DNA of 37,773 nt from a bacterium (GTDB lineage Bacteria > UBA10199 > JADGCS01): positions 1 through 37,773 of the forward strand of contig JAHJDR010000012.1 in assembly GCA_018812345.1 (NCBI GenBank), given 5' to 3'. The notes under the pieces are model-generated. The model saw only the letters and a program-made list of their open reading frames with translations, searched no databases and was not told where the DNA came from. The translations under genes were made by a program, and so were the position numbers. This document shows, piece after piece, positions 1,777 through 37,773 of this stretch (within the stretch, counting starts at the first letter, position 1; each line of letters starts with the position of its first letter).

Positions 1777-3288
1777 ATGGTCGATAAAGCACAACAAGCT
1801 AAATCAGTCATATTCCCTGTTTATGAAGGGGCAGGTCTTGCCTATGATATTGCGCGTTTTAGTGTGGAATATAATCAGGACAAGAAATGGACAGATTTAA
1901 CTCTTCCTCCCATGAATCTAGCGCGCCCTGAGCATGAACTGGCACCTGAAGCAGCTGCTGTCGGGGCTTTTTTAGAGCTCTCACAGATGGGGCTACGTGG
2001 TGTAATGCGACCAACCTATGTTTTTAATCCCCCTAAATTATATTCTGATAATGAGGTAACAACCAGAGATTATCCTCAGCTTCAAACAGGCATGTTTAAT
2101 CGCCTCACAGGCTCATTGGGTACGGATTGGATGGTTAGACAGGCCCTTGGTAATACCTACATGTATAACCGAGCAGAGTTTAGTGATGAGCCCTTTAATT
2201 CTTCCATGGCCTATGCGTACGGGGCGATGTTCTATCTCAACGCCATTTCAACGCCTTTAGAAATGCAGGCTACACAAAATATTGGCAATAAAGGGGTGGG
2301 GTGTACAGACGGCGCGATTAATGACATTAAAGGTCTTTTTAATTTTGAGACTTATGAAGAAGCGCAAGAGTTTTGTAATGCAGAGCAACCTGTTAATGGC
2401 GGACAAGATTTGGCAACCTACGATGATGAATATACTCAAGAAGAATGGGATGCCTTAAATGCTGAATGGGAAAATAAATTTTTAGAACTATCTGCTGTAA
2501 ATCGTTCTCTCTATACTTTTGGACAAGGTTCGCGTTTAACCACAATGATAAATTCTTCTCTGGGTGGTTTTCAGGCCTTGGAATTATATGATGGCAGACC
2601 CTCTGCTGGCACAATAGCCTTTGCTATTAGTGTACCCATAACACAATTTGCTTTGGCCCATAAAAGGGCAAAAGAACAAGGTGAACCGCGCAATGCTGAG
2701 GGTAAAATTGTGCCCATGAGCACGGAAAATGCGGTGTTGACTTTATCGGCTCATACGCTTGGTGGTTTACAAGCAAGTTTTATTGAAGACAAAGAAGTTT
2801 TACGAGCCGTTGGCGCCATGAATGGCATGGCTATTGATTGGTATAGTCCGCAAGTACACAGACAATTATATGCGGTATCTCTTGATACGGGTGCGTCTCA
2901 AGTGGCACCATTAATTAATGTTGTGATGCCTGTTTTAGAAGGCGGCCAGCATTTAAGCGGTGGTTTTCGATATGGCGCAGCTCTTGACGATGCCTCTACA
3001 CCTGGTGAAAAAGTCATGCTGCATGGAACGGCTGCACTTTATGGTGGTATTTATCTTGGTCGTACAATTGAAGCGGGGCAAGCAGAGCCACAAGTGTGGG
3101 CTAATTTTGGTATAAATACAGGCGTTTTTGGCGTCAGTACTTTAGTTGGTTATTTAACACGTAATACACCTTTTGGTCGTGTGATGAATGGTGAGCTTGT
3201 AGGAGATAGGCCAGGCGGCTTAGCTTCTTTACGTATAACAGGTGGTCCAAATGGTACGACAGGTCTTGGAATAGCAGGAGAATTTTAA
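1777..3288 (+). CDS. Hypothetical protein (503 aa), first gene of the giant-lipoprotein block
   Basis: Long ORF with GAGG 8-11 nt upstream. No N-terminal signal peptide. The C-terminal third has Gly/Ala-rich hydrophobic stretches and ends ...GLGIAGEF. Confidence 0.8.
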   Translation: MVDKAQQAKSVIFPVYEGAGLAYDIARFSVEYNQDKKWTDLTLPPMNLARPEHELAPEAAAVGAFLELSQMGLRGVMRPTYVFNPPKLYSDNEVTTRDYPQLQTGMFNRLTGSLGTDWMVRQALGNTYMYNRAEFSDEPFNSSMAYAYGAMFYLNAISTPLEMQATQNIGNKGVGCTDGAINDIKGLFNFETYEEAQEFCNAEQPVNGGQDLATYDDEYTQEEWDALNAEWENKFLELSAVNRSLYTFGQGSRLTTMINSSLGGFQALELYDGRPSAGTIAFAISVPITQFALAHKRAKEQGEPRNAEGKIVPMSTENAVLTLSAHTLGGLQASFIEDKEVLRAVGAMNGMAIDWYSPQVHRQLYAVSLDTGASQVAPLINVVMPVLEGGQHLSGGFRYGAALDDASTPGEKVMLHGTAALYGGIYLGRTIEAGQAEPQVWANFGINTGVFGVSTLVGYLTRNTPFGRVMNGELVGDRPGGLASLRITGGPNGTTGLGIAGEF

Positions 3289-3291
3289 TGA

Positions 3292-3357
3292 GTCTCACGT
3301 CGCTCGTCTCACGTCTCACGTAAATTAACGCTAGACGATAGACGCTAGACGCTAGAC
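3292..3357. repeat. Heptamer-array hairpin (GTCTCAC-type arm / CTAGACG-type arm)
   Basis: Left arm GTCTCAC GTCGCTC GTCTCAC GTCTCAC G (3292-3320). Loop TAAATTAA. Right arm CGCTAGACGATAGACGCTAGACGCTAGAC (3329-3357). The arms pair at about 5 of every 7 positions. Confidence 0.85.
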
Positions 3358-3366
3358 AAAACAACA

Positions 3367-6300
3367 ATGATACGACGGCTAAGCAAATACATAATCGCAC
3401 TTATCGCTTTTCTACTCATTTTCGCTAGTTGTGCTTCCGAAAATCAAGCCATAGATCTTGCTGAAATTGCAGACAATGATTCTAATACAGGTGATGGTGG
3501 TTCCTTTTATCCTGATGCAAGTGGCTCAACCAATATTTGCGATGAAGATGAAGATGGGAATTGTATTGATGAAGCGACGATTAGTTCTATCATGCTGAAC
3601 AATCAACAGCTTGATTATAATATGAGCGAGCTTGATGATATTGAGTGTCAGTCGCTAGGACTTCCTTCAGGTGTTTCTTTTGAAGCAGAAATAGATCAAG
3701 ATAATACAAGTCTTGTTGACGGTATTTACCAATTTACAGTCATGAATGCGAGTGGTGGTTATTCTGAAGGCCGTGTAACAGGTGCTGGAGATATTACAAT
3801 TTGTTACATGCGTTCCAGCATTGGAACACATTCTGGACAAGTGAAAATTCTTCTCAATGCGAGCAGCGTTTCATCTTCTGCCTATGCGTACATAATAAAA
3901 ACATCAGGACAAACACTCGCCCCTCTTTTTACCATAACAAATCCCACTGAAGGGTTGATTATAGATAAGCGAGATGGGCATCATGAGGGTGTTGACAGTG
4001 CTGAAGGAGATTATTTATTAACCGTAACAGGAACAGTTAATCTTGATTTGCAAACCATTTTTGAAAAGGGATTAAATACAGACCTTTATATCGAAGCTGA
4101 TGGTGTTAAATATAAGACAAGCTTTAGTGAGAGTGGTAGCTTTTCAAAACAAGTGGGTGTGCCACAGGTTGAGGGTATTTATGCGGTTAAAGTTTCTCTT
4201 AATACAAACAGAGATAGTGTTTTAGCAAAAACAATTAATGTTGTTGTGGCAGGTGCTCCTGATTTAGAAATTGAAGTACGCGATGTTTCAGAAACAGAAA
4301 TTGACACAACAGCGCCAACAGATCTTCCTTATCTTATTGTTGGGCTGCGCATTTCAAATTTAGCGACATCTGGATCAAGTGAAACAGACATGCCTGTGGT
4401 CTTGTCTGATATTGCCTTTAATGGCGAAGAGCTTTATCCAAATACATCTATTTGGTATGATGAAAGTTGGTCTTGGTGCGAGTCTAAAGAACTAACATCA
4501 GAAGACACAAAAGGATTTACAGGCGTAAACACCTTATGCATTCCTCTTGATCATATAACAGAGCTTCAAGATGGTGTTAATACGATTACCGCAAAAGCAA
4601 CCAATGTGCTTGGTGAAAGCTCTGTAAGCTACACACTGATCATTGATAATGATAAGCCTATTATAACGGTTACGAGCCCAGGTCAAAATCAGCTTTATGC
4701 TCCTGGGCAAACAAAAATTACAGTTTCAGGAAAAGTTAAATATTTTGCACCACTTGATTCGAGTCTTGCCTCCTCTAAACCAACGCCTGCAAGTGGTGAT
4801 GTGGGCAGTTATTGTCAGCCCACAGAAGAAGATGATTCAGATTGTCCGGCGTCGAGTGTTAAAATGTGGTTTAACGTTTCAACCAGTGATGACAACTATC
4901 CTATCTATATATATCCGGATTACGCTGATAGCTATTCCACTGTTTCCCAAGCAGAACAAGAAGCCTATATGGATAGTGAAAGTGGGCAGCATGGCAATTG
5001 TTATACACAGCAAACAACCGAAGAAAATGATGATGGCTCAGAAACTATTGAAGAAAACATAGTTTGTGATGTGCCAGAAGGAAATTTTAAATTAACGCTG
5101 ACAGTACCTTCCCTAGATCACCACGCCCATATTAATCTTTATACGAATGTTTTAGAATTGCAGGCAGAAAGTGTGAAAGGACATAGAACAATTGAGGTTG
5201 TGACCTTTCAGGTTGGTGAAACAAGCTCACATAAGAGAAGTTTTAAATTGGGCCAAACAGCGCGAACATCAACATTAACCTCAGGTCAGCTGGGTCTTGT
5301 AGAAACGTCTTGTGGTGTGACAGAAGAGGTTTGTGTTAACCGAGCACCTGTGATGCTCAATGTTTCTGAAGGCCTTATTAGTCGTGATTCAGTTGAAGGG
5401 GCTAAGATATTAAAAGTTGTGGAACATTACCTTAATGAAAATCTTAGTTTTGCAGACGTGGCAAATGGTTGGATGAACTGGCCAAAAGATGATGACGATA
5501 ACATTGCTCTTGAAGAAGATTTTCAGAAACAATGGTTGGAATCTAGCGAGAGTGATGGCGTACGCTATGATGATTTTAAAGATTTACCACCTGCTTGGAA
5601 AAAAAAGTTTATTCAACAAGCTTTGCATAGCAATGTTATGGCCATGAAGTTTTGGGCCTGGGTTCGCTACATTGATTACTTACAGGATTCTGAGGATTCA
5701 GATTGTGATATCCATCCTGAACAATGCTATTTTGAGCGAGAAGGCAACCCAGAAGATGACTACAATGTTGCTCTAGATAAGTGTGGTGAAGTGATTACCT
5801 CGTCTTTTGTGCCTATTGGTGATTTTATTCGCGTGGCAGAAACATTTAAAGACTATGACACAGATCGCATACGCTTGTGGCCAGAATGGCCAGATATTGC
5901 GGGCACGGATTTTGAGTATAATGATTTTGTATCTGGCAAATGGCTTGTTCAAAGTTTGAACCTAAAAGCAAATGGTTATGTGGATGCTGATGTGTGCATT
6001 GTTCCTGATGATGAAGCTCTTTATGATTCTTATCTTCTCAATGGGTGTGATGCGAATGTTGATAGTGCTGATGTGCCAGCTTTTTGGGGCCATTTTGTTT
6101 CTTACAATCTTGTAGAGGGTGGGCTTCTTGGTGAAAACAATGCCTTGCCCATTAATGATGAAACGATTCCCATGGTATGGTCTGTTGGTAAGATTCGATT
6201 AACATTTGAAGATGTTATTCAGGTAACAAAAGAAAAAATTGGTGATGTTTGGGCAAATAAAATTAATATTTTTGAAGATAAAATTAATATTGTTCAATGG

Positions 6301-8205
6301 GACGAGTTGGAAGATTTGTTTAAAGCAGGTGTGATGCACGCGCAAACCATTCAAGTAGAGCCTTTTTCTAACTGCCCAGCCTATTATGCCCAAAAGCACC
6401 CAGGCTATGAAATTCCCTTTGGTTGCTCAAATAGTGAAATGTCCAACTACCCCTTTGTGTTAGAGTTGAACTCAACAAAAGGACAGGACGTATATATAGG
6501 ACTAATGGATAATGGTGCGAGTTCCTATATGTTGGGTGTGGTTTGGCAAGGTGTGATAGAAACCTTTAAGAAAATGGTTGGCTGCATGGATACTGAAATG
6601 GTTAACCCCATGATCTCTTCTCATTATGATTATCCTGAGTGGGTATGGGAAGGTGGCGCCATGTCTTTAGATTTTGAATGGGAAGAATTTAATTTTGGTG
6701 CGAACATTGAAAATAGTGATCTGAATATTTTTGATGGTGGTATTACAGCGAGAGTGCCTTTAAGTCTCGGTGTTGATGGTGTGCCCATGACATCATTCAT
6801 AAATATGATAAGCTCACCCACTGGATTCAATTTGGGACAAACATCTAAGCTTGGCAGTTTCAGAACAGCAACAGAAGCGCATACCAAAGGACATCTTGTG
6901 CGTTCCCAACAAAACAATTATTTAGAAGGGTATCCCTTAACAAGTGATAGCCCTCAAACAGAGGCTTTTCTGGGGTTGTCCATTAATATAGAAGAAATTG
7001 TTAATGCCGCTTCATATTTAATTTTCAAAAAAGGTCCCCTATCACTTCTAGAAACCTTTGAAGTGGAAGAGTTAGAAAAAAACACAAACTGGAGTTTGGG
7101 TGTTGATAAGGTAATACTCGGTCGTTTTGATATTTGTAATATAGCGGGCCTGATTGGTTCTGAATTAGCACCATCTCTTTTATTTGCTACAACTCAATCT
7201 TTATTTAATGAATCATCGCTACACTTAGATGTTATTTTAGATCCTGATTATCCCGTAACACTTTCCTTAAATCCCATTGAGGGTGCTGGCAGCAACGCTA
7301 CAGAAATTCAATTGGGTGTGTCCAACTTACAAATTGGTATCAAAGAACTTGTGGCTTATACACGTAATGGCGACGTTCAGGCTAATGTCTATGAAAACCC
7401 CAAAGATCAGGAAGAGCTATTGCGTCTTCGTCTCGATGGAGTGATCAAGGTGAGGGTTGTTTATTACAAAGAGCTCAGACAGATTCACGTATACTTACCA
7501 GGTTTTACAGAGCAAAACGTTCATGTTAGCATTGTTCCCGGACGTGGTGGGCCAACGTATGATGATGTGAATGTGGTAACAGATGTGCTCAATGGTGTGA
7601 TCGCAGCTGTTTTTGATAAAATGGGCAAAGACATCTATGAGGATTTTGATGATGATGGCAATCTTGATCCTACTATTGCCAACCCAACACTTGTGGTGAC
7701 GCTAAAAGGTAATGATGAATATGGTCCGGGCACATTTAATGTTGCCAGCTTAGAAGACTTTGAATTTGAATTAAAAGTTGAAGCTGCCGAAAACGCTTCT
7801 TGTGGCGATGATATTCCTTATTATTCAGAAGAAGTAGATTATCCACAAAGACCAGATATGTTTAACAATTCTAAAACGAAAAATGTAGGTAGTTCTGTGC
7901 TCAAATCTTCGAGCAAGCTCCCTCAGCTGACAGGTGATTTGCAGCCAATTAGTCTGGATCTTAGTAAGGACTATACAATACATATGTGGAACGATCCCTG
8001 TAAGTTTCTCTATCCTGGAAAGTTAGTTAAAGAAGAAGATGGCACGTTTACTAGAGAAGAAGATGTTTTAAGAGAAACGCTTTGTGATTTTGGAATCAAA
8101 GATGTTGTGATCGATCCTGTGATCGAGTTTGATAATGATGAAGGTTATATTCATGTTTCAGCTGACTTGTTTATTGAGTTGGAGAATTGGCTTATAGATG
8201 ACTAA
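3367..8205 (+). CDS. Giant acidic Cys-rich lipoprotein (1612 aa), function unknown
   Basis: Uninterrupted 4.8 kb ORF. Lipoprotein signal MIRRLSKYIIALIAFLLIFASC. It has many D/E residues and about 28 Cys, mostly in local pairs, which suggests a disulfide-rich extracytoplasmic protein. Confidence 0.9.
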   Translation: MIRRLSKYIIALIAFLLIFASCASENQAIDLAEIADNDSNTGDGGSFYPDASGSTNICDEDEDGNCIDEATISSIMLNNQQLDYNMSELDDIECQSLGLPSGVSFEAEIDQDNTSLVDGIYQFTVMNASGGYSEGRVTGAGDITICYMRSSIGTHSGQVKILLNASSVSSSAYAYIIKTSGQTLAPLFTITNPTEGLIIDKRDGHHEGVDSAEGDYLLTVTGTVNLDLQTIFEKGLNTDLYIEADGVKYKTSFSESGSFSKQVGVPQVEGIYAVKVSLNTNRDSVLAKTINVVVAGAPDLEIEVRDVSETEIDTTAPTDLPYLIVGLRISNLATSGSSETDMPVVLSDIAFNGEELYPNTSIWYDESWSWCESKELTSEDTKGFTGVNTLCIPLDHITELQDGVNTITAKATNVLGESSVSYTLIIDNDKPIITVTSPGQNQLYAPGQTKITVSGKVKYFAPLDSSLASSKPTPASGDVGSYCQPTEEDDSDCPASSVKMWFNVSTSDDNYPIYIYPDYADSYSTVSQAEQEAYMDSESGQHGNCYTQQTTEENDDGSETIEENIVCDVPEGNFKLTLTVPSLDHHAHINLYTNVLELQAESVKGHRTIEVVTFQVGETSSHKRSFKLGQTARTSTLTSGQLGLVETSCGVTEEVCVNRAPVMLNVSEGLISRDSVEGAKILKVVEHYLNENLSFADVANGWMNWPKDDDDNIALEEDFQKQWLESSESDGVRYDDFKDLPPAWKKKFIQQALHSNVMAMKFWAWVRYIDYLQDSEDSDCDIHPEQCYFEREGNPEDDYNVALDKCGEVITSSFVPIGDFIRVAETFKDYDTDRIRLWPEWPDIAGTDFEYNDFVSGKWLVQSLNLKANGYVDADVCIVPDDEALYDSYLLNGCDANVDSADVPAFWGHFVSYNLVEGGLLGENNALPINDETIPMVWSVGKIRLTFEDVIQVTKEKIGDVWANKINIFEDKINIVQWDELEDLFKAGVMHAQTIQVEPFSNCPAYYAQKHPGYEIPFGCSNSEMSNYPFVLELNSTKGQDVYIGLMDNGASSYMLGVVWQGVIETFKKMVGCMDTEMVNPMISSHYDYPEWVWEGGAMSLDFEWEEFNFGANIENSDLNIFDGGITARVPLSLGVDGVPMTSFINMISSPTGFNLGQTSKLGSFRTATEAHTKGHLVRSQQNNYLEGYPLTSDSPQTEAFLGLSINIEEIVNAASYLIFKKGPLSLLETFEVEELEKNTNWSLGVDKVILGRFDICNIAGLIGSELAPSLLFATTQSLFNESSLHLDVILDPDYPVTLSLNPIEGAGSNATEIQLGVSNLQIGIKELVAYTRNGDVQANVYENPKDQEELLRLRLDGVIKVRVVYYKELRQIHVYLPGFTEQNVHVSIVPGRGGPTYDDVNVVTDVLNGVIAAVFDKMGKDIYEDFDDDGNLDPTIANPTLVVTLKGNDEYGPGTFNVASLEDFEFELKVEAAENASCGDDIPYYSEEVDYPQRPDMFNNSKTKNVGSSVLKSSSKLPQLTGDLQPISLDLSKDYTIHMWNDPCKFLYPGKLVKEEDGTFTREEDVLRETLCDFGIKDVVIDPVIEFDNDEGYIHVSADLFIELENWLIDD

Positions 8206-8229
8206 AGACTAAAGTCCAAAGACTAAAGT
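8202..8229. repeat. CTAAAGA heptamer array (left arm around the four-helix-bundle gene)
   Basis: CTAAAGA CTAAAGT CCAAAGA CTAAAGT. The TAA stop of the 3367..8205 ORF (8203-8205) lies inside the first unit. Confidence 0.85.
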
Positions 8230-8242
8230 TGGAGATGTTGTT

Positions 8243-8632
8243 ATGTCGAAATTTTAACGTTTTGAAGATATTGAAAGCTGGAAAAAAGCAAGAGAGCTTA
8301 ATAAAAAAATATATGAATTAACTAATACTGAAAGATTTAATAAGGATTTTGGATTTAAAGACCAAATTAGAAGAGCTTCATTATCTATAAGCAGTAATAT
8401 TGCAGAGGGTTTTGAAAGAGGTGGAGACAAGGAATTTTTCCAATGCTTGTCCATAGCTAAAGGTTCTTGTGGAGAAGTTAGGTCGCAGCTGTATTTAGCC
8501 TATGATATTAAGTATGTTTCTAAAGAAGAAGCTGAAATGTTATTAGAAGAGGCTTCTGAGATTAGTAAAATGATAAATGGATTAATGAAATATTTAAGGA
8601 GTTCAGAATTTACAGGAAAAAAATACAAATGA
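8243..8632 (+). pseudogene. Four-helix-bundle protein (23S rRNA intervening-sequence protein / Avd-like family) with an in-frame TAA at codon 5
   Basis: The frame reads MSKF*RFEDIESWKKARELNKKIYELT...QIRRASLSISSNIAEGFERGGDKEFFQCLSIAKGSCGEVRSQLYLAYDIKYVSKEE.... This matches the family hallmarks FEDLxVWQKA and R(R)AxxSIxxNIAEG. There is no ATG, GTG or TTG between the TAA (8255-8257) and the TTG at 8447. Confidence 0.75.
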
Positions 8633-9036
8633 CTCAATTAAGAAAAAATAATACCCTCTTTGTATTAAAACTAACTTTAGTCTTTAGTCTTTGGTCTTTA
8701 GTCTTTACAAGTTGTTCCACATTCTACGGTGGTACAACGAGTTCTGAGGGGGATATGAGTGTTTCAGCCTCTCCGACCGAGATAGCTATTAGTGGTGATG
8801 CGGGTACAACCAGTCATCGCACAATTACGTTTTCTAATGCGTCAGACCAGAGTTTTGAAATTCATAATATGGCTTTTGTAGATAATGATTGTGGGGCCTA
8901 TTCTGTTTATAATGTGCTCGATGAAGCCAATAATGTTCTCTATCAAACAGGTAATCCTATTTCTATTAGCGTTGTTTCTGGGGCAAGCATTAGTATTAAT
9001 CTGCAATTTAGCCCCACATCTTGTAAAACAACATAA
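8629..9036 (+). CDS. Lipoprotein, N-terminal part (135 aa), ended by an in-frame TAA
   Basis: The ATG overlaps the upstream TGA (ATGA). Signal peptide and lipobox ...LVFSLWSLVFTSC. Beta-sandwich-like pattern (ITFSNASDQSFEIHNM...ISINLQFSP). Confidence 0.7.
   Translation: MTQLRKNNTLFVLKLTLVFSLWSLVFTSCSTFYGGTTSSEGDMSVSASPTEIAISGDAGTTSHRTITFSNASDQSFEIHNMAFVDNDCGAYSVYNVLDEANNVLYQTGNPISISVVSGASISINLQFSPTSCKTT
8674..8708. repeat. TCTTTAG heptamer array (right arm, reverse complement of CTAAAGA) inside the signal-peptide codons
   Basis: ACTTTAG TCTTTAG TCTTTGG TCTTTAG TCTTTAC. Its reverse complement matches 8202-8229 at 25 of 28 positions. It encodes LVFSLWSLVF. Confidence 0.85.
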
Positions 9037-13886: not shown

Positions 13887-15014
13887 ATGACAAAAAAAAT
13901 TCCAGCTTATCTGGTCCTAAAAGATGGAACAGTGTTTGAGGGGTTTGGTTTTGGTTCATTAAACACCAATTCTGGTGAAGTTGTTTTCAATACATCCATG
14001 ACAGGTTATCAAGAAATTCTCACAGATCCATCCTATGCAGGACAGATCGTTGTGATGACCTATCCTCACATTGGCAATTATGGCATCAACCCAGAAGATG
14101 TGGAGTCGAGAAAGATTTATGCACAAGGCTTGGTCGTGAAAGAATTATCAGAAATCTATTCTAACCACCGGGCCACGTTATCGTTGGATGCTTATTTGAA
14201 AAAAGAAGGTGTTCCAGGAATCTCTGGCATTGATACCCGCGCCCTTGTGCGCCACATAAGGAATAAAGGCGCCATGCCAGCGCTATTGTCTGTGGGATCT
14301 AAACAAACAGCAAAACAACTCATTAAAGAGGCTAATAACTTACCAGAGATGAAAGGCCAGAATCTGGCAAAAGAGGTCTCAACGAAGGGCGTAAGGCGCA
14401 GGGAGCAAGGCGTAAGGCGCAGGGAGCAAGGCGTAAGGCAAAAACAGCGCTTCAATGTGATTGCCTATGATTATGGAATAAAGTTAAATATTTTGAGGTT
14501 GTTGGAAGCGCATGGGTGTAACGTTACGGTAGTGCCTTATGATTATTCAGCGGATAGAATTCTTAAGTCTAAAACGAAAATAGATGGTGTGTTTCTGTCC
14601 AATGGACCAGGAGATCCCGCGCCTTGTTTTCAAGCCATTGAGAATGTCAAAAAGCTTATTGGGAAAAAACCAATATTTGGTATTTGTTTAGGCCATCAAA
14701 TATTAGCCTTAGCCCTTGGGGCAAAAACATATAAATTAAAATTTGGTCATCATGGTGGTAATCAGCCGGTAAAAAATCTTGAAAAAGAAACAGTAGAGAT
14801 TACTGCGCAAAACCACGGTTTTGCTGTTGATCCACAAACATTGCCCCACGATGTAAAGATCACACACATTCATTTGAATGATCAGACGGTTTCAGGGATC
14901 AAGCATGAAACCTTGCCATTGTTTTCAGTGCAGTATCATCCCGAAGCTAGTCCGGGGCCGCATGATAGCACGTATCTCTTTCATCAATTTGTTGAATTGA
15001 TGAAAGAGAAATGA
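13887..15014 (+). CDS. carA: Carbamoyl-phosphate synthase small (glutaminase) subunit
   Basis: Full-length similarity, including the GICLGHQ catalytic Cys motif and QYHPEASPGPHD. Confidence 0.95.
   Translation: MTKKIPAYLVLKDGTVFEGFGFGSLNTNSGEVVFNTSMTGYQEILTDPSYAGQIVVMTYPHIGNYGINPEDVESRKIYAQGLVVKELSEIYSNHRATLSLDAYLKKEGVPGISGIDTRALVRHIRNKGAMPALLSVGSKQTAKQLIKEANNLPEMKGQNLAKEVSTKGVRRREQGVRRREQGVRQKQRFNVIAYDYGIKLNILRLLEAHGCNVTVVPYDYSADRILKSKTKIDGVFLSNGPGDPAPCFQAIENVKKLIGKKPIFGICLGHQILALALGAKTYKLKFGHHGGNQPVKNLEKETVEITAQNHGFAVDPQTLPHDVKITHIHLNDQTVSGIKHETLPLFSVQYHPEASPGPHDSTYLFHQFVELMKEK
14388..14440 (+). repeat. In-frame 21-bp tandem repeat (2.5 copies) inside carA
   Basis: GGCGTAAGGCGCAGGGAGCAA x2 plus GGCGTAAGGCA. 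Each unit is three degenerate heptamers (GGCGTAA GGCGCAG GGAGCAA). It encodes GVRRREQ GVRRREQ GVRQ in the inter-domain linker. Confidence 0.9.
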
Positions 15015-19486: not shown

Positions 19487-19566
19487 GGTTATCGGTTATA
19501 TCGGTTATCGGTTATCGGTTATCAGTTATCGGTTATCGGTTATCGGTTATCGGTTGTCGGTTATCG
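19487..19566. repeat. (GGTTATC)x11 tandem array abutting the ADH start codon
   Basis: Eleven units with three variants (GGTTATATC, AGTTATC, GGTTGTC). The array begins 6 nt from the ADH ATG (19481, minus strand). T10 homopolymer at 19572-19581. Confidence 0.9.
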
Positions 19567-19681
19567 TGGTGTTTTTTTTTTATAGTTTTATTATTATTGG
19601 AGAGCAATAATCAATATCAAATTGATTAATAGGTTGTTTAATGCCATATTTGCTATATTGTTAAGCAATTGTAATCGCTTA

Positions 19682-19725
19682 CGATAACACGATAACCTAT
19701 AACCGACAACCTATAACCGATAACC
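19682..19725. repeat. GATAAC-type heptamer array (inverted partner of 19487-19566) abutting the NRDE start codon
   Basis: CGATAAC ACGATAAC CTATAAC CGACAAC CTATAAC CGATAAC. It ends 4 nt before the ATG at 19730. Confidence 0.85.
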
Positions 19726-24503: not shown

Positions 24504-25379
24504 TTAATAGTTGTGTTTAAGAAGCTCTATTACTGTTGGGTGAGTAATTTTTCGCTCATTTGTAATGAGGTAATGTTTGTAGGTGATGCCAATATTATCG
24601 CCAATGATGTAGAGTTCTTTTGATTTTAACAAGTCACTCACTGCGGGACGGGGGATGGCGACAATGCCATGGCCACCCACAGCGATAACGCGTAACATTT
24701 CTATGTCTTGAATATCACCTTTGAGATACGGTTTTATATTATGTGTATCAAAGTAGAGATCGATTTCTGAGCGAAGACTTGTGGGGTGTGTTGGGAGAAA
24801 GAGAACTTGTTTATGTAGGCTGTGTGGAAATTTGCGACGAAGGTTTCTGTAATCAGGGCTAGCGACAAAAATGAGTGGTGCCTTTTCAATAATGTAGTGA
24901 TACAAGCCTTTAATGTCTTTTGGGGCTGGTTCATTGCTAATGAGAATATCTAAGATCCCTTTTTTAAGCTTGTTGATGAGGTTTGGCATGGTATCGACAA
25001 CGATATTAAGAATGACTTTACCATGTGACAAGGGCCTTCGCAATAATGTGTGGATATTTTTTTTGGGCAAAGAATGGACAAGGCCTATTGTGAGATCAAT
25101 AGTATCTTTAACCGCGCTCACATTCAGGGCGTCCATCATTTCAGAACCTTTTTTAAAGATTAAATCAGCATAATCAAAAATGATTTTGCCTTTATCATTT
25201 AAAATGAGTTTTCGTGAGCGTCGTTCAAAAAGAGGGGTGCCCATATGTTTTTCAAATTGGGCTAGTTGACCAGAAAGCGTTGGTTGTGAAAGGCGTAGTT
25301 TTTTGCAGGCTGCTGTGACGCCGCCTTCTTTGGCAATTGCCCAAAAATAATAAAGATGATTGTAGTTTAGTTGATCCAT
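24504..25379 (-). CDS. LysR-family transcriptional regulator (NhaR-like N-terminus)
   Basis: The wHTH region LNYNHLYYFWAIAKEGGVTAACKKLRLSQPTLSGQL, followed by a substrate-binding-type C-terminal domain. Confidence 0.85.
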   Translation of the reverse strand: MDQLNYNHLYYFWAIAKEGGVTAACKKLRLSQPTLSGQLAQFEKHMGTPLFERRSRKLILNDKGKIIFDYADLIFKKGSEMMDALNVSAVKDTIDLTIGLVHSLPKKNIHTLLRRPLSHGKVILNIVVDTMPNLINKLKKGILDILISNEPAPKDIKGLYHYIIEKAPLIFVASPDYRNLRRKFPHSLHKQVLFLPTHPTSLRSEIDLYFDTHNIKPYLKGDIQDIEMLRVIAVGGHGIVAIPRPAVSDLLKSKELYIIGDNIGITYKHYLITNERKITHPTVIELLKHNY

Positions 25380-25385
25380 GGGTTA

Positions 25386-25455
25386 TCGTCGCTCGTCTCT
25401 CGTCGCTCGTCGCTCGTATGAAACGATAGACGCTAGACGCTAGACGCTAGACGCT
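25386..25455. repeat. Heptamer-array hairpin (TCGTCGC-type arm / CTAGACG arm)
   Basis: Left arm TCGTCGCTCGTCTCTCGTCGCTCGTCGCTCG. Loop TATGAAA. Right arm CGATAGACG(CTAGACG)x3 CTG. The Nnr stop codon (25447-25449, minus strand) lies in the array. Confidence 0.85.
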
Positions 25456-26931
25456 GTTGTTTACAAGATTTCTCAAATATACAAACAAATCACTCGCCAC
25501 AAGTCCCCGTTCTCCTTTTGTTGCGGCGAGATCGGCTGCTTTAGCGTGTAAACACACGCCAAGTTTTGCAGCGTCTAAGGCTGACAGCCCTTGGGCTATA
25601 AGTGCGGCAACAATTCCTGTTAAGGCGTCACCCATGCCCCCGCTGGCCATGCCAGGGTTACCTAAATCACATAAATAAATATTACTTTTGGGATCACAAA
25701 CAAGAGAGCCTGAACCTTTCAAAATAACAGTTGCCTGGTATTTCAATGCTAGTTTTCTAATGGCTGAAAAGCGATCTTTTTGCACGGCTGCTGTTGACGA
25801 ACCAAGAAGCCGTGCGGCTTCACCAGGATGTGGTGTGAGAATCATGGTTTCTTTTTTTAAGGGTTCTTGTGCCAGGAGGTTTAGCGCATCAGCATCAATG
25901 ACCAAAGGCAGTTTTGATTTGATGCAGGCTTGAAAAAGATGTTTTGCCCATACGTCTTGTCCTAAACCAGGCCCTATGGCAATTACCGATGCTTTACCCA
26001 TTTGTTCTGCTATTTGCGTGTCCTTATCAACTCCCCAGGACATGACTTCTGGTAACCATTTATTTATAAGAGGTGCATGTTGTTTTTTGGTCGCCAAACT
26101 AACAAGTCCCGAGCCTGTTCTAAGGCAGGCTGTGGCACAGAGTAGTGCTGCGCCCAACATACCTGTGTTGCCACCAACGATTAATGTGTGTCCGTAATTA
26201 TTTTTATGCGTGTTTTTTGCTCGTGGCGGTAATTTAGCTAAGAGCTGTGTTATATTGAGGCGCTCAGTTTCATTATTAATCCATTCATAAATTGAGCTGG
26301 GAACACCGAGGTCATCAAAAAAAATACGGCCAGAACATTCTGGACCATTATTTGTAAAAAGACCTCTTTTGAGACCAATAAAACTAATGCTCGCTGTTGC
26401 CATAACAGCGCAGCCCATAATTTCTCCTGTGTCTGCTTGTATGCCAGAGGGGAGGTCTAACGATAAGACAGGTTTTTGGGCGCTATTAATAGCCAGTACA
26501 GCCTTACGAAAGGGATTGATGATATTGCGAGATAATCCGGAACCAAAAATGGCATCTATAATAAGATCAAAGGTGTGCAGTCTTTGGTTGGTGTATTGAA
26601 TAATAGTTGTTTTTGTTTTTACCAGATCTTTGTAGGCTTTTAGGGCATCACCTTTAAGTTTGTTTGGATTGATTAACAGAAAAACAACAACATTCTTTTT
26701 TGCTTTATGTGCCAGGGAGGCAAGAGCAAACCCATCCCCCGCATTATTTCCAGCACCACAGACAACAGCGATGTATTTGTCATGAGGATGAAACTCTTGA
26801 ATCAGATCAAAAGCAGCTTTTGCAGCACGGGTCATGAGTGTGTATCCTGAAATATTGTGATCTTTAATGGCAATTTTATCAAGTTCTCTCACTTGAGTAG
26901 CGGTGTATAGTTGTGTTGGTAGTTTTGTCAT
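25447..26931 (-). CDS. nnr: Bifunctional NAD(P)H-hydrate repair enzyme (epimerase + ADP-dependent dehydratase)
   Basis: YjeF N-terminal domain (VCGAGNNAGDG) fused to a carbohydrate-kinase-like C-terminal domain (GPGLG, GGMGDALTG). Confidence 0.9.
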   Translation of the reverse strand: MTKLPTQLYTATQVRELDKIAIKDHNISGYTLMTRAAKAAFDLIQEFHPHDKYIAVVCGAGNNAGDGFALASLAHKAKKNVVVFLLINPNKLKGDALKAYKDLVKTKTTIIQYTNQRLHTFDLIIDAIFGSGLSRNIINPFRKAVLAINSAQKPVLSLDLPSGIQADTGEIMGCAVMATASISFIGLKRGLFTNNGPECSGRIFFDDLGVPSSIYEWINNETERLNITQLLAKLPPRAKNTHKNNYGHTLIVGGNTGMLGAALLCATACLRTGSGLVSLATKKQHAPLINKWLPEVMSWGVDKDTQIAEQMGKASVIAIGPGLGQDVWAKHLFQACIKSKLPLVIDADALNLLAQEPLKKETMILTPHPGEAARLLGSSTAAVQKDRFSAIRKLALKYQATVILKGSGSLVCDPKSNIYLCDLGNPGMASGGMGDALTGIVAALIAQGLSALDAAKLGVCLHAKAADLAATKGERGLVASDLFVYLRNLVNNSV

Positions 26932-26952: not shown

Positions 26953-27024
26953 CGAGACAGTCGAGACAGTCGAGACAATCGAGACAGTCGTGTTGTTGAT
27001 GCAACGATTGTCTCGATTGTCTCG
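26953..27024. repeat. 9-nt-period array hairpin (CGAGACAGT / CGATTGTCT)
   Basis: CGAGACAGT x4 with one AAT variant (26953-26990). Inverted partner CGATTGTCT x2 (27005-27024), which is perfectly complementary to the CGAGACAATCG variant. Confidence 0.85.
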
Positions 27025-32133: not shown

Positions 32134-32469
32134 ATGACAATATTCAAAAAAATAATTAATAAAGAAATTCCGGCAAATATTCTTTATGAAGATGATTTTT
32201 GCTTGGCGTTTCATGATATTAACCCAAAAGCACCCATTCATTTTCTTGTCATACCCAAGACTACAGAAATAGATAAACTCTCTTCAGCCAAAAAGGAACA
32301 CAAAGACCTTTTAGGGCATTTGATGATAACAGCAAAGGAGTTAGCTGAAAAAGAAGGGTTAAAAGATTTTCGTGTTGTCATTAACAATGGTGAAGGTGTT
32401 GGACAGACAGTGTTTCACTTACATATTCATGTTCTTGGTGGTCGTGATTTCACTTGGCCCCCTGGATGA
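32134..32469 (+). CDS. HIT-family (HinT-like) nucleotide hydrolase
   Basis: Histidine triad HLHIHVLGG and a length of about 111 aa. Confidence 0.9.
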
Positions 32470-32477
32470 CTTGTTTT

Positions 32478-32541
32478 CCGTGTCCCGTGTCTCGTGTCTT
32501 GTGTTCGGCATTCTGAACACTGAGCACTGGACACTGAGCAC
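32478..32541. repeat. Heptamer-array hairpin (CCGTGTC arm / GAGCACT arm)
   Basis: CCGTGTC CCGTGTC TCGTGTC TTGTGTT C, then loop GGCATTCT, then GAACACT GAGCACT GGACACT GAGCAC. GTG/CAC cores pair every 7 nt. Confidence 0.85.
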
Positions 32542-32550
32542 TTATAGTTC

Positions 32551-33294
32551 GTGTTCAGAAGAAATATCATTATTTACACGTTTTTCATTTTATTGTTATA
32601 TCCAAGTGTGGCTCAAACAGCAGACTGGACAATCCTGCCATCAGGCCTTGCCTATAAACAGATAGAAATTGTCTTAAATGAATCAGTGATTTCACTTCAT
32701 GCCCTTAAAATTGACCCTTCACAATACACAATTAAACCAATTTTTTCTGAAACAAGTGCTTCTGTACAAAAGTTAGCTCTCAAGACAGGTTCTTTAGCTG
32801 TTATCAATGCCAATTTTTTTGATACAAAAGGCAGGGTTCTTGGTTTAGTGAGAAATGATAACAAAAACATTAATAATATAAAGAAAATATCCTGGTGGTC
32901 AGTGTTTTGTCATAAAAATAAGCAGGCAAAAATTGTTCACACAACACAGTACAACGATACTTTTTGCGAGCAGGCTGTTCAGGCAGGGCCTAGGCTGGTT
33001 GTTGATGGGATTATGCCAAAGCTCAAGGATGAGCTTTCACGAAAAACAGTCGTGGGTATTGATCGTCAGGGCTTCATAATTTTTGTGGTGAGCAAACAAG
33101 AGATTCCTATTAAATTGTTAGCTGAAATCATGACGCAATCTGAAACAAATGGTGGTTTTGATTGTCCTAACGCTATCAATATGGACGGAGGAGGCTCATC
33201 GCAGCTTTATATTCAAGACGCGCCTGTTGACTACAATTTGCCCAGTTTTGTTGAGGTTCCTGTCGGGTTGGGGGTCTTTTTAAATGAAAAATGA
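32551..33294 (+). CDS. Phosphodiester glycosidase family protein (DUF2233/NAGPA-like), secreted
   Basis: GTG start and a signal peptide ...YPSVAQTA. Family blocks AVINANFFD and NMDGGGSS. Confidence 0.75.
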   Translation: MFRRNIIIYTFFILLLYPSVAQTADWTILPSGLAYKQIEIVLNESVISLHALKIDPSQYTIKPIFSETSASVQKLALKTGSLAVINANFFDTKGRVLGLVRNDNKNINNIKKISWWSVFCHKNKQAKIVHTTQYNDTFCEQAVQAGPRLVVDGIMPKLKDELSRKTVVGIDRQGFIIFVVSKQEIPIKLLAEIMTQSETNGGFDCPNAINMDGGGSSQLYIQDAPVDYNLPSFVEVPVGLGVFLNEK

Positions 33295-35495: not shown

Positions 35496-35565
35496 GTGTT
35501 CTGTGGGCCGTGAACAGTCGTTTATTCTTAGGCAAAAAAACAGTTCACAGGTCACGGGACACTGG
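35496..35565. repeat. Heptamer-period hairpin (GTGnnnn arm / nnnnCAC arm)
   Basis: GTGTTCT GTGGGCC GTGAACA GTCG ... CAGTTCA CAGGTCA CGGGACA CTGG. GTGAACAG and CAGTTCAC pair with one mismatch. Confidence 0.7.
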
Positions 35566-35573
35566 TTACAGAA

Positions 35574-36443
35574 TTAAGGGGCGATTTTAAATCGTCCGTA
35601 TAAGCTTGCTTGCTTTTGTGTGTTAACTTCTGTCACATCGAGAACCACACGATAAAAACCAAGCGTGATATCCTTATGGAAATCCATTTTTGTTTTTATT
35701 TCCAGCTGTGATGTTTCTTTATCAATTTTTCCTGTGTAACGCAAAAAAGAAGGTTTGTAGAGAATAAGGCTTCCTTTATGAGAAAAAACACGAATACTTA
35801 CTTCTAGTTTGAGCGTTTCAGGGATAGAAACATTAAAATCTTTTACATAAAACTTTAGATAAAGATCAGAACCAGCGGTTATTGTTTTTGAGCTGAGAGG
35901 TTCACCCCTTTCATTTATAAATTCTAAAGGACTTAACAATAGCTGTTCCGATTTGTGAAAAACAACTTGTTGTTCGGATTTAATTTCTTTTTTGTTTGTG
36001 AAGAAAAGGCCTGAGCCAATGATGAGTGTGAGTAGAAGAATGAGTGAGCCAAAAGTCAACAGGGCTATTTTTGCCGTTCTTTTGTTTAGATCAATGGCTT
36101 TTATAGCGTTTGCGAGCGCATTTATTTTATTTGTAAAAAATGATTTTCCCTTCACAGGGATGCCCGCTTCTATTTTCTTAATTTTATAGGAAATGCTGCT
36201 GGGTTCTTTTGTTCGTGGTGGACGCGCAACCTGTTCTCTTTGTGTGACTTCTATATTGAGTTTTGTTGTGACGCTGTCTTCTTCTTGTTCTTCTTGAGTT
36301 GTCGTGTAAGGAGGACGTTCTTCAACCAAGGTGATTTCATTCTCATCAAAAGTATCTTCCAGTCGGATTTTTGTTGTTGTTTCAAATTGGCGTTGATTTA
36401 TTTTATAGGTTTTTGTTTTGTCTTGATATTTGTCTTTTGTCAT
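35574..36443 (-). CDS. Single-pass membrane protein, function unknown (289 aa)
   Basis: Acidic T/E-rich N-terminal region, one TM helix (IALLTFGSLILLLTLIIGSGLFF) and a C-terminal domain of about 130 aa. Confidence 0.7.
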   Translation of the reverse strand: MTKDKYQDKTKTYKINQRQFETTTKIRLEDTFDENEITLVEERPPYTTTQEEQEEDSVTTKLNIEVTQREQVARPPRTKEPSSISYKIKKIEAGIPVKGKSFFTNKINALANAIKAIDLNKRTAKIALLTFGSLILLLTLIIGSGLFFTNKKEIKSEQQVVFHKSEQLLLSPLEFINERGEPLSSKTITAGSDLYLKFYVKDFNVSIPETLKLEVSIRVFSHKGSLILYKPSFLRYTGKIDKETSQLEIKTKMDFHKDITLGFYRVVLDVTEVNTQKQASLYGRFKIAP

Positions 36444-37615: not shown

Positions 37616-37690
37616 GCTGGATATAATGCCACATTAGGGATGTTTGGATCAATGGGAATGTGCGTTGATAGCAGAGATACTATAGAGCGT

Positions 37691-37773
37691 GCTATCGTCC
37701 ATCGTCTAGCGTCTATTTCGCTAGACGCTAGACGCTAGACGCTAGACGCTAGACGCTAGACGCTAGACGATAG
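37691..37773. repeat. Heptamer-array hairpin with (CTAGACG)x7, truncated by the window end
   Basis: CGTCTAGCGTCTA (37703-37715) pairs perfectly over 13 bp with TAGACGCTAGACG (37722-37734). Seven perfect CTAGACG units span 37721-37769. Confidence 0.9.

Follow-up and report, generated by a model that had tools for sequence, protein, structure and literature searches.

The short tandemly repeated repetitive (STRR) sequences are reportedly a feature of filamentous cyanobacteria, and stem-forming STRR arrays are said to lie in rnpB and nif spacers. For strain fingerprinting, heptamer arrays (the STRRs and repeats related to them) have been in use since 1990. In Xanthomonas, GGGAATC heptamers form 70 to 75 close pairs per genome, one array per strand and always convergent, with the repeat type kept between species and the lengths varying (Rehm et al. 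2015, PMC4692102). The TAACTGA repeats of Beggiatoaceae, cyanobacteria, and Bacteroidetes are intergenic, run to 2 to 6 copies, and abut start codons (MacGregor 2015, PMC4679880). They show an orientation bias relative to genes and are almost exclusively direct arrays of a single unit, with one inverted case (PMC4679880).

The elements described below are, as far as their sequence indicates, STRR-like repeats, a known kind in a new, non-photosynthetic, uncultured lineage. They came to attention through four hairpins in a 37,773-nt stretch of DNA (the window). The original prediction was that the arms of each hairpin are complementary only at a 3 to 4 nt core recurring every 7 nt, and it offered two explanations, namely selection on a periodic structure or independent expansion of two heptamers that share a complementary core.

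Array hairpins in the window

All four sites are inverted repeats that fill a short spacer between co-directional genes (Table 1). Tandem Repeats Finder reports two opposed period-7 arrays at the sites beginning at 32478, 25386, and 3292, and no period-7 array at 35496. The predicted restriction of pairing to a core stood at two of the four sites, where the folds are ladders, was overstated at a third, and did not hold at the fourth, which is nearly continuous. The clearest ladder is at 25386, between a LysR-type gene (24504-25379, minus strand) and a YjeF-type gene (25447-26931, minus strand), the final 9 nt of whose ORF are overlapped by the 3' arm. Pairing between these arms is confined to CGTC/GACG, the core proposed for them, and the predicted fold has helices of 4, 5, 4, 4, and 4 bp with symmetric 2x2 or 3x3 loops between them. 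At 3292, the 5' arm begins 4 nt past the stop of the ORF at 1777-3288 and the 3' arm ends 9 nt before an ATG at 3367, both neighbors being large lipoprotein-like ORFs. The fold of GTCTCAC//ACGCTAG is again a ladder (helices of 4, 4, 5, 5, and 3 bp; -27.1/-33.0 kcal/mol, z -4.7/-3.8).

Table 1. Coordinates of array elements in the window (// separates the two arms; numbers after units are copies)
Feature	Position	Units and remarks
5' arm, site 32478	32478..32508	four units CGTGTCY/TGTGTTC
Loop, site 32478	32509..32512	CATT
3' arm, site 32478	32513..32541	CTGAACA CTGAGCA CTGGACA CTGAGCA
5' arm, site 25386	25386..25417	(TCGTCGC)4.6, CGTC family
3' arm, site 25386	25423..25455	(ACGCTAG)4.7
5' arm, site 3292	3292..3321	(GTCTCAC)4.3, CGTC family
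3' arm, site 3292	3328..3357	(ACGCTAG)4.3
Hairpin, site 35496	35496..35565	between YebC-type gene and unassigned ORF 35574-36443
CGTC-family pair	37686..37773	AGCGTCT x4 // CGCTAGA x7.9, 3-nt loop; runs past window end
Pair of 9-nt units	26953..27024	CGAGACAGT x4.2 // CGATTGTCT x2.2; hairpin, architecture as heptamer pairs
Pair in divergent spacer	19487..19725	GGTTATC x11 // CGATAAC x6, 115-nt gap
Wide pair	8200..8707	GACTAAA x4 // CTTTAGT x4.7, enclosing about 446 nt

The arms at 32478 start 9 nt past the stop codon of a HIT-family gene (32134-32469) and end 10 nt short of a phosphodiester-glycosidase-like gene (32551-33294, longest-ORF start), and the 3' arm has a higher-order period of 14 nt. 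GTG/CAC is indeed the sole block common to all four unit pairs, as had been proposed, but the pairs match by Watson-Crick rules at 4, 5, 3, and 6 of 7 positions, and the minimum-energy fold contains 25 pairs (G-U included) with an 8-bp terminal helix (-29.4 kcal/mol, z -3.7). The claim that only a 3 to 4 nt core pairs therefore understates the pairing at this site. At 35496, the units are heptamer-like (CNGTGNN), no two are alike, and the fold is a nearly continuous stem, so the GTG/CAC ladder suggested for it is not borne out. Fold energies at the cited sites lie 3 to 5 SD under those of dinucleotide shuffles, with the plus strand at 25386 as the exception (-27.4 kcal/mol, z -0.58; minus strand -30.0, z -3.2).

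The window holds 29 period-7 rows, as against 1.2 in first-order Markov simulations. One repeat lies within an ORF: the interior of the frame at 13887-15014 carries a perfect 21-nt higher-order repeat, GGCGTAAGGCGCAGGGAGCAA x2.5 (14388-14439), consisting of three AAGGC-family heptamers, and since 21 nt is 3 x 7 nt the reading frame is preserved. The genes at 3367 and 25379, directly downstream of array hairpins, are without a Shine-Dalgarno-like 4-mer. Over the ATG starts of the whole genome, such a 4-mer is found at -18 to -4 in 42% of genes, compared with 9% in a control interval.

Complementarity, unit architecture, and arm polarity across the genome

The genome from which the window comes (G000; 3.06 Mb, 39% G+C, 97% complete) contains 1,075 period-7 arrays, of which 732 (about 70%) lie mostly in intergenic DNA. 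Arrays with at least 3.5 copies number 753 for period 7, 171 for period 8, 63 for period 6, and 22 for period 9. The 8-nt-unit arrays are genuine, and together with those of 9 nt they indicate that the array process is not strictly heptameric. The 8-nt-unit arrays also weaken the suggestion that three units, at 21 bp, make up about two helical turns of DNA. The units fall into at least 35 classes with unrelated cores, and individual units recur in many arrays (ACGCTAG in 103, ACGATAG in 73, AACCGAT in 61).

Neighboring arrays separated by a gap of 0 to 30 nt make up 189 close pairs. Such a pair occupies a median of 80% of its host spacer, with a median start 3 nt past the upstream stop and a median end 8 nt before the next start codon, and pairs are present in 6.9% of co-directional, 4.3% of divergent, and 2.8% of convergent spacers. 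The loops are 4 to 22 nt long (10th to 90th percentile) and their sequences are unrelated among copies. At C435:1644 and C392:1716, a G+C-rich mini-hairpin (e.g., ccccgaaacgggg) lies between the arrays, as if these had formed on either side of a pre-existing stem-loop. Two sets of copies are alike beyond their arms. The hairpins at C276:5 and C8:24219 are identical and share an identical right flank, the C276 copy standing at a contig start where the left flank is uncomparable; redundancy in the assembly or a duplication of recent date is the probable cause, and duplicates of this sort slightly inflate the locus counts. The near-identical CCGTT-family hairpins at C220:2384 and C220:2954, 570 nt apart with the same left flank and similar loops (aaagcactaca and aaattactaca), look like a local tandem duplication of gene and spacer.

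Complementarity between arms was measured as the best-rotation match of the two arm consensuses in all 189 pairs, with partners shuffled among loci for comparison. Observed pairs exceed shuffled ones at 7, 6, and 5 matches of 7 (22, 49, and 67 pairs vs 5, 9, and 22) and fall below them at 4 (35 vs 67) and at 3 or fewer (16 vs 87). The arms are thus more complementary than shuffled arrays, as the original prediction would have it. At the sequence level, the number of phases paired out of 7 is 7 in 5 hairpins, 6 in 30, 5 in 70, 4 in 50, 3 in 21, and 2 or fewer in 13, so that pairing at 5 phases is the commonest state and 84 of the 189 hairpins have no more than 4 phases paired. The core-only ladders thus form the weak end of a continuous range. 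The idea of a core has statistical substance for this weakly paired tail, a contiguous 4-nt core being present in 49% of the 4-of-7 class compared with 21% in shuffled partners.

The complementarity is not a property of the individual locus. When partners were shuffled within each of five families, no locus-specific complementarity was found (z -2.1, 0.4, -1.4, 1.8, and -1.9), and the variable positions of the CGTC family match at 0.53 at real loci compared with 0.61 with shuffled partners. Complementarity therefore belongs to the family as a whole, with no coordination of the variable positions between arms. Particular mismatched combinations of arms recur at unlinked loci with unrelated loops, including ACGATAG/ACGCTAG at 16 loci, AAACCGG/ACAACGG and AATAATC/AATATCC at 7 each, and AAAGCTC/AAAGCTG at 4. 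Selection against perfect palindromes was considered and set aside: 7/7 pairs number 18 against 23.9 expected in the five families, and arm length grows with complementarity.

The ladders can be traced to the architecture of the units. Each family has a constant core of 4 to 5 nt and 2 to 3 variable positions, for example CGTCT+NN, CCGTT+NN, and CAATA+NN; in the largest, the constancy of CGTCT is 88 to 98% and variation falls on the two positions after it (TAG, TAT, TGT, CAT, TCA, GCT). Across 143 hairpins, unit diversity within arms is 0.14 to 0.15 at non-pairing phases and 0.07 at pairing phases, and the per-phase diversities of the two arms are correlated in the true register only (rho 0.22, p 6e-13). 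By itself, this pattern would point to a constraint on pairing. Arrays that lack a partner arm (solo arrays) have the positional profile of paired arms in all four families tested, and the division into core and variable positions therefore belongs to the unit family and not to the hairpin. Selection on a periodic paired structure, one of the two explanations first offered, accordingly finds no support here, given the identical pattern in solo arrays and the lack of partner-specific pairing within families. The solos of two families show no more than a hint of extra core variability; in family F1, diversity at core positions 2 to 4 is 0.05 in solo arrays vs 0.025 in paired arms, which hints at a small pairing-related constraint. 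A conserved terminal cap, CGTGCTA, was also considered for CGTC-family arrays; it is present in 23% only and looks like a decayed unit.

The other explanation, independent expansion of two heptamers, comes closest to the truth in that the arms share complementary cores, but the arms are not independent and are always of one family. Within each family, one strand form is always the 5' arm, in a ratio of 92:1 at gaps up to 40 nt and 12:2 at gaps of 41 to 150 nt, and the pairs at 19487 and 8200 in the window (Table 1) obey the same rule. A family-free count gives 5 minority votes among 212, where 75 are expected under random polarity, and direct-oriented neighbors with the same unit number 4 vs 76 inverted. 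Independent arrays adjoining by chance would show both polarities equally, so this fixed polarity means that the arms are not independent. Heterogeneous blocks of 3 units (21 nt) are also common to unlinked loci more often than when unit order is shuffled within arms (574 vs 372±44, 180 vs 108±17, and 75 vs 39±9), and two loci that differ in their loops carry an identical 31-mer mosaic. Arms are therefore related by copying. The copy numbers of the two arms are barely coupled (rho 0.15), and mirror symmetry of unit variants between arms is weak (permutation z 3.1), with the single locus C1:854 contributing about 21 points of the 47-point excess. A compositional rule for the 5'-arm form was rejected: T exceeds A in 103 vs 50 pairs, but in only 39 vs 30 distinct units.

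Relatives of the host and the origin of the arrays

Arrays reach densities of 351, 278, and 191 per Mb in three congeners. In sampled stretches of family- and order-level relatives (G003-G009), the density is 0 to 100 per Mb, and a single array with at least 3.5 copies was found, in G003; the genomes of the relatives measure 1.6 to 4.6 Mb. Among 85 orthologous spacers compared between G000 and its congener G002, arrays are shared at 3, compared with 3.0 expected, and the units differ, so that array presence is independent between the two. Of 21 spacers orthologous between G000 and its congener G001, 5 hold arrays in both genomes, in three cases from the same family, and one orthologous hairpin keeps its AAGGC/GCCTT core in both arms with different variable dinucleotides. 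The spacer after the HIT gene illustrates the turnover. In G000 it holds the hairpin at 32478, in G002 a direct (GTAGCTT)6 array, and in G001 a core-only ladder with GGAC/GTCC; the G003 spacer (L103 11056-11187) is free of arrays and has a plain hairpin of 9 bp, ATTCTGTGC...GCACAGAAT, which may be the state before arrays arose. Among the sampled relatives, the arrays are restricted to the genus, and they turn over rapidly between congeners.

Y1_Tnp, RVT_1, MutS_V, and Pol I 5'-nuclease genes were examined as correlates of this burst and rejected, all being present in array-rich and array-poor relatives alike. The Y1_Tnp (IS200/RAYT-type) domains lie at the N-terminus of open frames of ~320 to 340 aa (e.g., on C117, C120, and C416). 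A reverse-transcriptase homologue in G000 (C208:1301-1926) is broken by in-frame stops (2 TGA and 1 TAG), and similarly in G001 (C150), which makes it either a pseudogene common to both genomes or a gene that is recoded.

We think it rather likely, if far from certain, that the elements are STRR-like arrays spread by copying and slippage, and that the ladder is a by-product of unit architecture rather than a selected periodic fold. Each cited element consists of two inverted tandem arrays in which a 7-nt unit is present in 3 to 5 copies. The two arms carry one family on opposite strands, which makes the cores complementary every 7 nt, and the variable positions are filled regardless of the partner arm, which produces the periodic internal loops. 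The arrays themselves are presumably STRR-like selfish or near-neutral DNA, and a copy-based, strand-polar process acting at the DNA level, symmetric on both strands of a site, would spread arms between spacers, where they would afterwards grow and shrink by slippage. A transcript across the element in either direction is predicted to form a metastable ladder hairpin. Several points stand against this explanation. No enzyme or gene among those examined (Y1, reverse transcriptase, MutS, Pol I 5'-nuclease) correlates with the arrays; the loops are unrelated between copies, and simple whole-element transposition is therefore hard to reconcile with them; the core diversity of F1 solos hints at a small constraint from pairing, and the spacer and orientation biases of the arrays at some filtering; and the constancy of cores in arms, in solos, and across species might just as well be due to a protein that recognizes them.

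That last point is the starting point for a different proposal, in which the arrays are platforms for a protein that reads a 4 to 5 nt core once per 7 to 8 nt of DNA or single-stranded nucleic acid. A cold-shock or OB-fold protein covering ~7 nt per monomer would be a candidate, and with inverted arms the assembly would have two-fold symmetry. Cores that stay constant beside free spacer positions, and the fixed polarity, are what such a platform would be expected to have, and CspB does bind heptamers with one protein per heptamer (PMC4679880). We nevertheless rate this as improbable. With at least 35 unit classes of unrelated cores, no single sequence-specific protein could read all the arrays, and units of 8 and 9 nt exist as well; no candidate gene was identified, and the arrays are dispensable at any given spacer. 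Selection might instead act on RNA, the ladders being intercistronic stem-loops for mRNA 3'-end protection, RNase cleavage, or translation uncoupling whose periodic loops would leave them meltable by ribosomes. Placement speaks for this: the pairs fill their spacers almost from stop codon to start codon and are commonest between co-directional genes, fold energies lie well under those of shuffled sequences, and solo arrays of two families favor one orientation relative to genes (57:29). The symmetry of the polarity also means that transcription, whichever way it runs, reads the same 5'-arm and 3'-arm forms. From the co-directional enrichment and the bias of the solos, some RNA-level filtering of arrays is possible. 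Direct signs of selection on the transcript are missing, however, and we consider a selected RNA element unlikely. G-U wobbles show no sense excess (123 sense vs 126 antisense), and the sense fold is the more stable one in 61 cases and the antisense fold in 50, without asymmetry. T makes up 6 or more of the 10 downstream nt in 6% of 113 co-directional hairpins, and the flank there is A-rich (mean 4.2 A vs 2.7 T). With this lack of a T-tract and none of the four cited sites called by a terminator scan, an intrinsic (Rho-independent) terminator was rejected; Rfam 15 gave zero matches at gathering threshold across the whole window. Complementarity that is not specific to partners within families, a core pattern kept in solo arrays, and random presence at orthologous spacers of congeners all count against the RNA proposal, and 4-bp helices broken by 3x3 loops are poor RNase III substrates.

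Mobility in trans was weighed as well. The pairs could be REPIN- or MITE-like non-autonomous elements, with array arms as terminal inverted repeats and a Y1 transposase acting on them, and such elements would display the fixed polarity, the inherited left and right arms that match imperfectly, and the multi-unit blocks common to several loci. Some pairs also bracket loops of 64 to 621 nt, twice with a small gene inside (on C31 and at C342:8200-8707), and six Y1_Tnp genes are present in the genome. Even so, we judge this very improbable. None of the six is flanked by arrays (the sole array within 2.5 kb is ~1.1 kb away), and Y1_Tnp genes are equally common in array-poor relatives, with 1 to 10 copies in every relative examined; the loops are unrelated in both sequence and length among copies, and the arms are not palindromic REP units. 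Alternatively, strand-polar addition of 7 to 8 nt units could take place at the two 3' ends that a single site offers (for instance at a break, nick, or stalled fork), by a templated or slippage-driven process resembling telomere healing in a bacterium. This is a distinctly improbable reading, and if true it would explain a good deal: why the same strand form is always 5', why neither the variant content nor the copy number of one arm depends on the other, why the loops are unrelated local sequence, and why a constant core is accompanied by degenerate junction positions.

Relation to described repeat systems

For annotation, this genome is a caution against taking a periodic ladder as a sign of designed structure, whether in RNA or for protein binding. 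The arrays place concrete constraints on any model of origin: period 7 and then period 8 dominate; a core with free positions is present with or without a partner arm; polarity is strict; imperfect arm combinations are inherited and blocks are shared; there is no transcription-strand signature; and a burst at the level of the genus goes with rapid turnover.

With REPINs and REP-BIMEs, the elements share dispersed intergenic inverted doublets that form imperfect hairpins, the imperfection being inherited (Bertels & Rainey 2011, PMC3116915). They differ in that the arms are tandem arrays and not palindromic REPs, the spacer is conserved in neither length nor sequence, and Y1 genes are unflanked. 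Membership in the REPIN/RAYT class was rejected for these reasons, the doublet being inverted but its spacing of 4 to 22 nt unconserved and no Y1_Tnp gene flanked by cognate arrays; membership among MITEs was rejected on internal sequence, the loops being unrelated among copies. The TAACTGA repeats are likewise abundant intergenic heptamers with an orientation bias relative to genes, whereas inverted pairs are frequent in G000, where many units exist side by side. The convergent-only pairs of Xanthomonas parallel the fixed polarity seen here (92:1), both being intergenic heptamers. The Xanthomonas repeats have one G-rich unit capable of forming a G-quadruplex (GGGAATC or GGGGAYT), while dozens of units are present here, none of the top unit classes of G000 contains a GGG run, and the two arms typically carry different variants.

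Heptamer-array hairpins next to carB are also found in named genomes of other phyla. At the locus in a cyanobacterial MAG, GTCAGTT//CTGACTC forms a ladder of 5-bp helices and 2x2 loops, the same ladder as here, and the hairpin by carB in a Ferrigenium MAG is a near-perfect stem. The closest likeness is to the STRRs, which are few-copy tandem heptamers, as are the arrays discussed here, and which also form a few families, every one of them scattered over tens to hundreds of loci between genes and often inverted and foldable. The unit sequences here are not those of STRRs, however, and neither is the host: STRRs belong to filamentous (heterocystous) cyanobacteria, whereas a search of the 97%-complete genome for Photo_RC (PF00124) gave no match, with a positive Synechococcus control, and the host is not an oxygenic cyanobacterium. 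We know of no description of fixed polarity, of complementarity at the family level only, or of core and variable positions within units for STRRs. What is new, then, is the fixed arm polarity, the inheritance of heterotypic arms, the blocks shared across loci, and the core/variable pattern of solo arrays, seen here in a dense and compact example of heptamer arrays outside the cyanobacteria.
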